From NCBI GenBank assembly GCA_049513715.1, contig JBEKVV010000001.1, forward strand, positions 352,001 to 416,000: a stretch of DNA of 64,000 nucleotides, given 5' to 3'. Below, one piece after another: positions 18,239 through 40,642 of the stretch. Within the stretch, counting starts at the first letter, position 1, and the number at the start of each line of letters is the position of its first letter. Below the pieces are notes generated by a model, which saw nothing but the letters and a program-made list of their open reading frames with translations, was not told the origin of the DNA and did no database searches. A program made the translations under genes and the position numbers. Source of the DNA: Candidatus Bathyarchaeia archaeon. Lineage in GTDB: Archaea; Thermoproteota; Bathyarchaeia; 40CM-2-53-6.

Positions 18239-18365
18239 GGAGTCAGCAGCGGTCCGGGGCTCGCATGGCCTTTCGGAACACACTACTACCCGAATCGCCT
18301 GAGAGATTCACTTCCGTGTTCGGAATGGGAACGGGTCCTAGCTCTCAGCTATGGCCGCCAACTCC
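18239..18365 (-). rRNA. rrf: 5S rRNA (stand-alone)
   Basis: minus strand GGAGTTGGCGGCCATAGC…CCCGTTCCCATTCCGAACACGGAAGTGAA…GGTAGTA…GCTGCTGACTCC with paired ends. Confidence 0.95.
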
Positions 18366-20217: not shown

Positions 20218-20443
20218 TGGTGGGGCCGAAGGGACTCTCCTGGTTCAGGGTGGAACCATTTTGAACCCTCGACTTCCGCCATGCCGTCATGTCTACGGGT
20301 TTCTTCGCTCCTGAAGTTCGTCATTCCGAACTGGTCCGCAAACCCGGAGGTTTGGTCTTCTGGAGCCCTTGGCGGGATCTTTCCCTGTCGTCATCCCTGG
20401 CTAGAGACCGCCGCTCAATCCGAATCATTGCGCCTACGGCCCC
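20218..20443 (-). tRNA. trnW: tRNA-Trp(CCA) with five BHB introns and encoded CCA
   Basis: exons 20434-20443, 20387-20405, 20360-20368, 20293-20300, 20260-20273 and 20218-20234 join to a 77-nt cloverleaf GGGGCCG TA GTCT AGCCAGGGA TGAC G ACGGG CT CCA GA CCCGT AGGTC GAGGG TTCAAAT CCCTT CGGCCCC A CCA. Confidence 0.88.
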
Positions 20444-20679
20444 ACACGGGTCGCGACAGGGCGGCCCCAACCACAGAGGCGTGGGAAGTTGCTATATGGA
20501 TTTTGGCCCATAGCCGCAGTTGATTTGTCACCTAGACGCCGCCGTGAGGCCAATGTTTTCGGTATGGCCAGCAGAGAGTTGTGCAGCGAAAACGGCGGTT
20601 GGCTTGCACCCACAAAGGCGCGCCGAGCGTCGCCGCCAACTAGTAATATCCGACCAACATCAAATCTATCCGAACAACG

Positions 20680-40515: not shown

Positions 40516-40642
40516 TGGCGCCGGGAGAGGGATTCGAACCCCCGAGGCCCATAAGGGCCACGGGCTTGCGTGGCATCGTACACTCAAGGCCCGCGCCTGT
40601 AGATCGAGTCTCCAGACTGCTAATCCGCTCGGCCATCCCGGC
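40516..40642 (-). tRNA. trnS: tRNA-Ser(UGA) with two BHB introns and encoded CCA
   Basis: GCCGGGA/TCCCGGC acceptor, G discriminator, long variable arm; introns 40599-40620 (D-loop) and 40567-40582 (37/38). Confidence 0.92.

Follow-up and report, generated by a model that had tools for sequence, protein, structure and literature searches.

The 64,000-nucleotide (nt) stretch of DNA analysed here, referred to hereafter as the window, belongs to a metagenome-assembled genome (MAG) of the Bathyarchaeia, that of a soil or peat archaeon. Positions 20218-20443 of its minus strand are, in our judgement very probably, the single tRNA-Trp(CCA) gene of this host, interrupted by five introns of the bulge-helix-bulge (BHB) type that would be spliced out stepwise by EndA and RtcB. 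Five introns equal the highest count reported for any tRNA gene. Comparative sequence evidence, above all the presence or absence of individual introns from family to family, is the decisive support for this reading. Coordinates below are those of the window and positions within the tRNA follow the standard numbering; L and G numbers designate orthologue loci and genomes, respectively, with G000 being the host.

The anatomy of the locus can be read directly from the DNA. Six exons and five introns occupy 226 nt, of which 149 nt (66%) are intron, and the introns (28, 18, 59, 19 and 25 nt) lie at sites 10/11, 28/29, 37/38, 45/46 and 59/60; all features are on the minus strand. Exon 1 (20434-20443, 10 nt) supplies positions 1-10, is invariant in 19 of 19 aligned orthologues and precedes intron 1 (20406-20433). 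Exon 2 (20387-20405, 19 nt) carries positions 11-28, that is, the D arm and the beginning of the anticodon stem, and is separated by intron 2 (20369-20386) from exon 3 (20360-20368, 9 nt, positions 29-37), which holds the anticodon CCA. Intron 3 (20301-20359) occupies the canonical site and has box C/D-like elements inside it. Exon 4 (20293-20300, 8 nt, positions 38-45), intron 4 (20274-20292), exon 5 (20260-20273, 14 nt, positions 46-59), intron 5 (20235-20259) and exon 6 (20218-20234, 17 nt, positions 60-76 with an encoded CCA) complete the gene.

When the six exons were joined in silico by these coordinates, the 77-nt product was called tRNA-Trp(cca) by ARAGORN. It has a perfect acceptor stem of 7 base pairs (bp), a 5-bp ACGGG/CCCGT anticodon stem, A73, an encoded CCA, a 7-nt anticodon loop (CTCCAGA) with U33, and a TTCAAAT T-loop in a standard T arm. 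The initial annotation of this locus had described the same six exons and five introns, a 77-nt cloverleaf left by their removal, exons of 8-19 nt and a gene that is about two thirds intron. All of its coordinates proved correct, and the stems, loops and CCA are as it described them. Its expectation that standard finders would overlook the gene was borne out for ARAGORN and Rfam. ARAGORN made no call on the unspliced locus, whether its single-intron mode was on or off, and RF00005, the tRNA model of Rfam, did not match it at the gathering score or at E values up to 10. The sole Rfam match to the locus at that permissive limit, a long non-coding RNA with an E value of 9.4, was dismissed as chance. 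Two open reading frames (ORFs) of 80 and 74 amino acids on the plus strand (20281-20523) overlap the gene; both are probably spurious, and gene callers may annotate them where the tRNA-Trp lies.

To follow the gene among relatives, 41 genomes (G000 and 40 relatives) were searched at the DNA level. Most of the genomes from the same genus have the locus, with 82-89% identity, and in other families of the order the search recovered its 3' two thirds. A purpose-written spliced aligner gave 39 loci with the gene, which were reduced to 30 distinct sequences by removal of nine exact duplicates; L014, L017, L018 and L019, which are truncated at contig ends, and L077, which is without the gene, were left out of the alignments and counts. 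Five introns are present in 24 of the 30 distinct orthologues of the order, four in five and three in one. The five-intron architecture recurs in MAGs from many separate assemblies, which excludes an assembly error. When loci were instead taken by synteny with a neighbouring gene, 11 of 43 had a full tRNA-Trp (score of at least 104) and one (L027) was cut by a contig end; in the remaining 31 the chains did not rise above noise (scores 23-52), and these loci were set aside.

Each of the four non-canonical introns is missing from at least one family, and in every case the junction is exactly the predicted one. Intron 1 is absent from L068, L072, L073 and L074, in which positions 1-29 are contiguous, and a different intron of 34-35 nt in the D loop replaces it in five distinct sequences (L030, L032, L035, L036 and L038). 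Intron 4 is absent from L075, leaving positions 39-60 contiguous. L076 has neither the 59/60 nor the 28/29 intron; its T arm is intact, positions 26-37 are uninterrupted, and an intron of 46 nt is found at 25/26. An apparent fifth intron in L074 was rejected as an alignment artefact at the non-encoded CCA. The 28/29 intron of L075 (genome G032) measures 88 nt, compared to 16-33 nt elsewhere. None of the orthologues examined lacks the canonical 37/38 intron. In other orders of the class it is the only intron in 25 of 30 tRNA-Trp loci, while four have two introns and one (L133) was mis-tracked by the aligner.

The same exon boundaries were recovered by an approach that makes no use of splice motifs. 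G072, a genome with compact tRNA genes from another order of the class, has a tRNA-Trp with one intron whose mature form shares 66 of 75 positions with the joined product. With this sequence as the query and introns left free, the window locus was the best in the whole host genome (score 80, compared to 62 for the next), and refinement of the boundaries guided by G072 gave introns of exactly 28, 18, 59, 19 and 25 nt, the lengths originally proposed.

In the BHB layout used here, four exon nt pair with four intron nt, a 3-nt bulge lies 3' of each strand, and the cut is placed after the second bulge base; h denotes the outer helix and h' the inner helix. Intron 1 has 4 of 4 central pairs with h of 2 bp and h' of 3 bp, and intron 4 has 4 of 4 with h of 0 and h' of 4. 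The central helix is relaxed by one mismatch (3 of 4 pairs) at intron 2 (h 1, h' 3), intron 3 (h 3, h' 0) and intron 5 (h 5, h' 6). Thus the claim that every junction forms a 4-bp helix between two 3-nt bulges holds fully at introns 1 and 4 and in relaxed form at the other three. Every intron keeps at least one flanking helix of at least 2 bp. The mismatches at intron 2 (A24.C) and intron 3 (C34.A) are invariant in 19 of 19 orthologues; at intron 5, A57 is unpaired in this genome and paired in the other 18 of the 19. When a pass was defined as four pairs with a flank of at least 2 bp, or three pairs with a flank of at least 3 bp, random boundary pairs of the same lengths in the host genome passed at 1.9-2.1% each. 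The product over five junctions is about 3e-9, a figure that is indicative only since the rule was set after the junctions had been seen.

Conservation of these elements was followed in an alignment, A1, of the 19 distinct genes with the 10/11 architecture. Within it 75 of 77 exon columns are invariant, compared to 58 of 177 intron columns, and the sole variation in exon 2 is a change of G20 to T in two relatives. The BHB helices are paired in 91.3% of cells, compared to 31.6-51.2% when the 3' partners are slid by one to three columns. Ten pairs show double-sided changes, a number that 0 of 500 shuffles reached, and none of the ten falls outside the h' helices within introns 1, 2, 4 and 5. They include three of three h' pairs in intron 1 and four in intron 5, and the h' pairing of intron 2 is preserved through two double changes.

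Thermodynamic folding reproduced the motif cleanly at intron 4, where the local minimum-energy structure is exactly helix, 3-nt bulge, helix (frequency 0.80), and roughly at introns 1 and 5. The local fold of intron 2 shows the intron hairpin alone, and in the minimum-energy fold of intron 3 the anticodon loop pairs with an internal GGAGC and not with the motif. Folding energies add little here, deciding neither for nor against the motifs. Introns 1 and 4 share a half-motif: the exon in front of each ends in the hexamer CCGTAG, and each intron ends in GCGG followed by two nt. This similarity would fit the copying of one intron to the other site.

The best-surviving alternative grants that the gene is real and proposes that one or two of the insertions, intron 2 foremost, are not EndA introns as drawn, so that the introns with weak motifs would leave by another route, or only after the others, from a motif that differs from the one drawn. 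Intron 2 invites this doubt by its 3 of 4 central pairs, the internal A.C mismatch kept in all 19 orthologues, an outer helix of 1 bp and a local fold in which only the hairpin forms. To our knowledge there is no other route by which archaea remove tRNA introns. The 3' half of the intron 2 helix and the two bulge positions are nevertheless invariant in 19 of 19 orthologues, its two double changes maintain h', and EndA of the broad-specificity types accepts relaxed motifs (PMC5829648). We regard this alternative as improbable, and prefer to read all five insertions as BHB introns.

Enzymes suited to such a precursor are encoded in the host genome. There are two EndA paralogues of 186 and 192 amino acids, each with N- and C-terminal domains (PF01974/PF02778) and only 26% identical to each other, and one RtcB (PF01139, 578 bits). 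Since the two EndA paralogues are so divergent, the enzyme is probably a heteromer of broad specificity. From the motifs and the enzyme genes we infer cleavage, ligation and their order as follows. A single precursor transcript of at least 226 nt would be made. At each intron the last six nt of the exon and the last six nt of the intron would form a 4-bp helix between two 3-nt bulges, buttressed either by the intron hairpin (h') or by a tRNA stem (h), and EndA would cleave in both bulges before RtcB ligates the exons. The central helices borrow nt from the stems of the tRNA: positions 5-8 of the acceptor stem at intron 1, 23-26 of the D stem at intron 2 and 40-43 of the anticodon stem at intron 4. 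The intron 4 helix also excludes the anticodon stem, which is the outer helix of intron 3. Because stem nt are shared in this way, the five motifs and the cloverleaf cannot coexist, and the introns would have to be removed stepwise, with refolding between steps.

Public sequencing data were examined for transcripts of the gene. Among 24 candidate runs, none contained half of the sampled words, and in the four best RNA runs the contigs covered only unspliced parts of the loci of relatives, with no exon joints. Mature tRNAs are poorly captured in such libraries, so the missing joints speak neither for nor against splicing. Two contigs are described for their ends. In RNA run X2 (20259-20410) a 174-nt metatranscriptome contig of a relative has the end of exon 5 followed by a 25-mer resembling intron 1 and then by exon 2. 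Its ends overlap by 3 nt, as expected of a circle of 171 nt that extends from intron 1 to exon 5; the shorter side is 27 nt with a depth of 3.1, below the criterion for a joint. This contig could be a circularised by-product of cleavage or an artefact. In RNA run X3 (20268-20405) an adapter-flanked contig that retains introns 2-4 starts precisely with exon 2, at the 3' cut site of intron 1; it may be a processing intermediate or a coincidence.

A search for a second tRNA-Trp in the host genome found none: in a spliced search with the joined product the window locus scored 119 and the next 68, and the runners-up were other tRNAs. Two other loci were labelled Trp by ARAGORN in intron mode and were rejected. 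ARAGORN itself re-called them Cys and Phe, and dissection by hand identified one as an Arg(TCG) gene interrupted by two introns and the other as a class II Leu(GAG).

The host genome has 18 tRNA matches above the Rfam cut-off; its family has 10-16 per genome, other families of the order 14-30 and other orders of the class 17-51. About 46 tRNA genes are expected per genome. A rough reference-guided census of the host gave a structure for 34 of 40 candidate loci, which leaves roughly a quarter of the expected genes unaccounted for. Introns per locus were none in one, one in eight, two in 15, three in seven, four in two and five in one (the tRNA-Trp), a mean of 2.1 per tRNA gene that is a picture rather than a measurement. 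The census made errors of isotype and structure, including one "Stop" anticodon and an intron placed in an Asp locus for which ARAGORN reports none. A further interrupted tRNA gene is located within the window at 40516-40642 on the minus strand (contig 392516-392642). It was seen only by the intron mode of ARAGORN and by Rfam (36.5 bits), is given two introns by the census, and has differing isotype calls, Ser(TGA) and Arg(TCG). A 5S rRNA gene (18241-18362, minus strand; Rfam, 83.1 bits) shares the strand of the tRNA-Trp gene and is situated some 1.9 kb downstream of it.

Several observations weigh against the interpretation of the locus as the host's single, stepwise-spliced tRNA-Trp gene. 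Spliced RNA was not seen, so that splicing is deduced. At introns 2, 3 and 5 one of the four central pairs is missing, intron 3 has no inner helix adjoining its motif, and thermodynamic folding fails to recover the motifs of introns 2 and 3. The fold of the whole precursor is only slightly better than that of shuffled sequences (z of -1.93), and local z values run from -0.15 to -1.71. The BHB pass rule was chosen post hoc. With 16 of the 19 genes in A1 coming from one genus, the covariation counts overstate the independent support. The search for a second tRNA-Trp leaned on similarity to two tRNA-Trp sequences, and a very divergent or differently broken copy could escape it. Finally, the genome is in 11 contigs with an estimated contamination of 8.79%.

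Another reading is that the locus is a decayed, non-functional relic and that the true tRNA-Trp lies elsewhere, unassembled or unrecognisable by similarity. The draft state of the genome, the mere 18 tRNAs that pass Rfam, which imply that many tRNA genes are hard to detect, and a mature product without RNA evidence could all be cited for a relic. The exons, however, are invariant over an order-level spread while the introns diverge, which is unexpected of a relic; the cloverleaf is perfect; and no other locus resembles tRNA-Trp in a genome whose completeness is estimated at 99.4%. We therefore consider a relic very improbable. The chance that five free cuts simply carved some cloverleaf from 226 nt is negligible: the boundaries were first chosen by eye and relaxed BHB-like pairing (at least 3 of 4) occurs at about 15% of random boundaries, but the idea is refuted by natural alleles that lack each non-canonical intron and show identical junctions, by the independent natural tRNA-Trp of G072, which aligns to the same six pieces, and by the contrast between invariant exons and variable introns.

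Intron 3 differs from the others in being far more conserved, with 30 of 67 alignment columns invariant, and blocks of its sequence recur in the single tRNA-Trp intron of other orders in the class. Inside it, on the minus strand, are a D'-like box CGGA (20335-20338) with an 8-nt antisense element upstream (20339-20346) directed against tRNA positions 35-42, a C'-like box ATGACGA (20318-20324), a second antisense element TTCAGGAGC (20307-20315) whose GGAGC pairs with positions 31-35, and, 12 nt after C', a GA-containing AAGA (20302-20305). With the criterion of RUGAUGA-like and CUGA-like boxes 3-14 nt apart, all 23 distinct introns of the order contain a C'/D' pair (ATGA-N-GA / C-N-GA). D' is CGGA in 11, CTGA in five, CCGA in four and CAGA in three, and C' equals the consensus ATGATGA in three of the 23. 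The D' guide makes 8-11 contiguous pairs with positions 35-45 in 21 of the 23 introns, C39 being at the fifth pair; for other orders, as parsed, only 11 of 26 introns show at least 7 such pairs. The second element makes 7-9 contiguous pairs with positions 31-38 in all 26 parsed introns of those orders. If AAGA were a D box, C34 would fall at the fifth pair; this reading fails in other families, which have four extra nt in that region. Terminal C and D boxes were not consistently identifiable in the introns of this order or of other orders, and no Rfam family matched intron 3. The host encodes fibrillarin (PF01269, 323 bits). Taking these features together, we judge the prospects evenly balanced for the 59-nt canonical intron acting as a box C/D methylation guide for tRNA-Trp.

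A precedent exists in the Euryarchaeota, in which a tRNA-Trp intron at 37/38 similarly combines kink-turn (K-turn) boxes with elements antisense to its own anticodon arm. The present intron differs in having no consistent terminal C/D boxes, in matching no Rfam family and in belonging to a host that is not a euryarchaeon. It is also 59 nt long, compared to about 105 nt in Haloferax. In Haloferax and other Euryarchaeota the sites methylated under the intron guide are C34 and U39 (PMC11408192); for Pyrococcus tRNA-Trp the predicted targets are C32, C34 and C39 (PMC7668247). The candidate targets here are C39, at the fifth position of the D'-like guide, and the region under the second element, positions 31-38.

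The 5' leader of the gene is also conserved. GGGGCCG (20462-20468, minus strand) is complementary to the 3' acceptor strand, and CCCTGTCG (20454-20461, minus strand) is complementary to positions 25-28 and the first four nt of intron 2. GGGGCCG(A) sits 11-31 nt upstream of exon 1, and at least 6 nt of it pair in 20 of 20 orthologues with the 10/11 intron and in three of five with the D-loop intron; the other two genes of the latter type have GGAGCCGA or GGAGTCGA in its place. In L068, L072 and L073 no such motif was detected close to the gene (best pairing 4-5 nt); the only match in L074 is of 6 nt and is located 65 nt upstream. The CCCTGTCG block is conserved within the genus and could be a folding decoy, a lead only, since the relatives that share it are not independent.

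In the host and several relatives, the hairpin of intron 1 has the form stem, 3 nt, GA...GA, stem (CGC-AAT-GA...GA-GCG) and is K-turn-like; in other relatives a plain helix replaces this signature. Binding of L7Ae at the hairpin is speculation from its sequence.

In kind, this biology is ordinary, for BHB introns are familiar; in degree it is extreme. The gene resembles those of the Thermoproteales (Pyrobaculum, Thermofilum and Caldivirga) in having non-canonical BHB introns besides that at 37/38, in its short exons and in its presumed dependence on a broad-specificity EndA. Sites 45/46 and 59/60 are positions known from the Thermoproteales tRNA literature. The initial annotation had set the gene in a Thermoproteales frame, which must be abandoned: the host is a member of the Bathyarchaeia, and the relatives of the neighbouring gene are almost all MAGs of Bathyarchaeia or Bathyarchaeota. 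It had also called five introns exceptional, and this stands only in part. The number is above the maximum of three per archaeal tRNA gene given in the tRNAscan-SE 2.0 paper (PMC8450103, 2021), which reports 71 introns in 46 tRNA genes for the richest Thermoproteales genome. Five have, however, already been reported in Asgard archaea. In an Asgard genome paper (PMC11291895), 92-95% of tRNA genes have introns and over half have several, and in a preprint (bioRxiv, October 2026, 10.64898/2026.10.13.758758) three Asgard families have 2.2 intervening sequences per tRNA gene with a maximum of five.

The Asgard genomes resemble the present one in that interrupted tRNA genes form the majority, standard annotation overlooks many of them and insertions in the D arm are prominent, and their value of about 2.2 introns per gene is close to the 2.1 of our rough census. 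They belong to a lineage unrelated to the Bathyarchaeia host, and "bathyarchaeota" does not occur in a full-text search of the preprint. In the red alga Cyanidioschyzon merolae, BHB-dependent tRNA introns likewise occupy the D arm, the 37/38 site and the T loop, and reverse transcription PCR has shown that they are removed stepwise (PMC3728597); the difference is that this is a eukaryotic nucleus, with at most three introns per gene. Full-text searches, which did not cover subscription journals or closed supplements, found no report of tRNA introns in Bathyarchaeia or Bathyarchaeota, the sole hit being the preprint version of the Asgard genome paper, and for four or five introns per tRNA gene nothing beyond the Asgard reports. 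The case of this lineage thus appears to be undescribed.

A wider interpretation can be offered only tentatively, and we consider it rather doubtful. The order might be a hotspot of tRNA fragmentation that arose independently of Thermoproteales and Asgard archaea, with about two introns per tRNA gene. Its introns might have been gained repeatedly, as two alternative D-arm sites and lineage-specific presence or absence at 28/29, 45/46 and 59/60 would suggest, and their splicing might be helped by RNA elements built into the transcript. Under such a scheme the leader would pair with the 3' acceptor strand and so free exon 1 for the intron 1 motif, L7Ae would bind the K-turn-like elements of the introns, and the class-wide canonical intron would act in cis as a box C/D guide in the formation of Cm34 and Cm39. 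If the last of these is true, the tRNA-Trp intron guide extends beyond the Euryarchaeota.

For the lineage itself, the finding places a five-intron tRNA gene in a widespread group of soil and sediment archaea, and it illustrates that an essential tRNA gene can escape standard finders entirely. Quality statistics that count tRNAs in MAGs, and inferences of codon reassignment from a "missing" tRNA-Trp, could therefore mislead for these lineages. The order provides a natural allele series of three, four and five introns, compared to one in sister orders, that is suited to the study of how BHB introns are gained and lost and of how a precursor with mutually exclusive motifs is processed.
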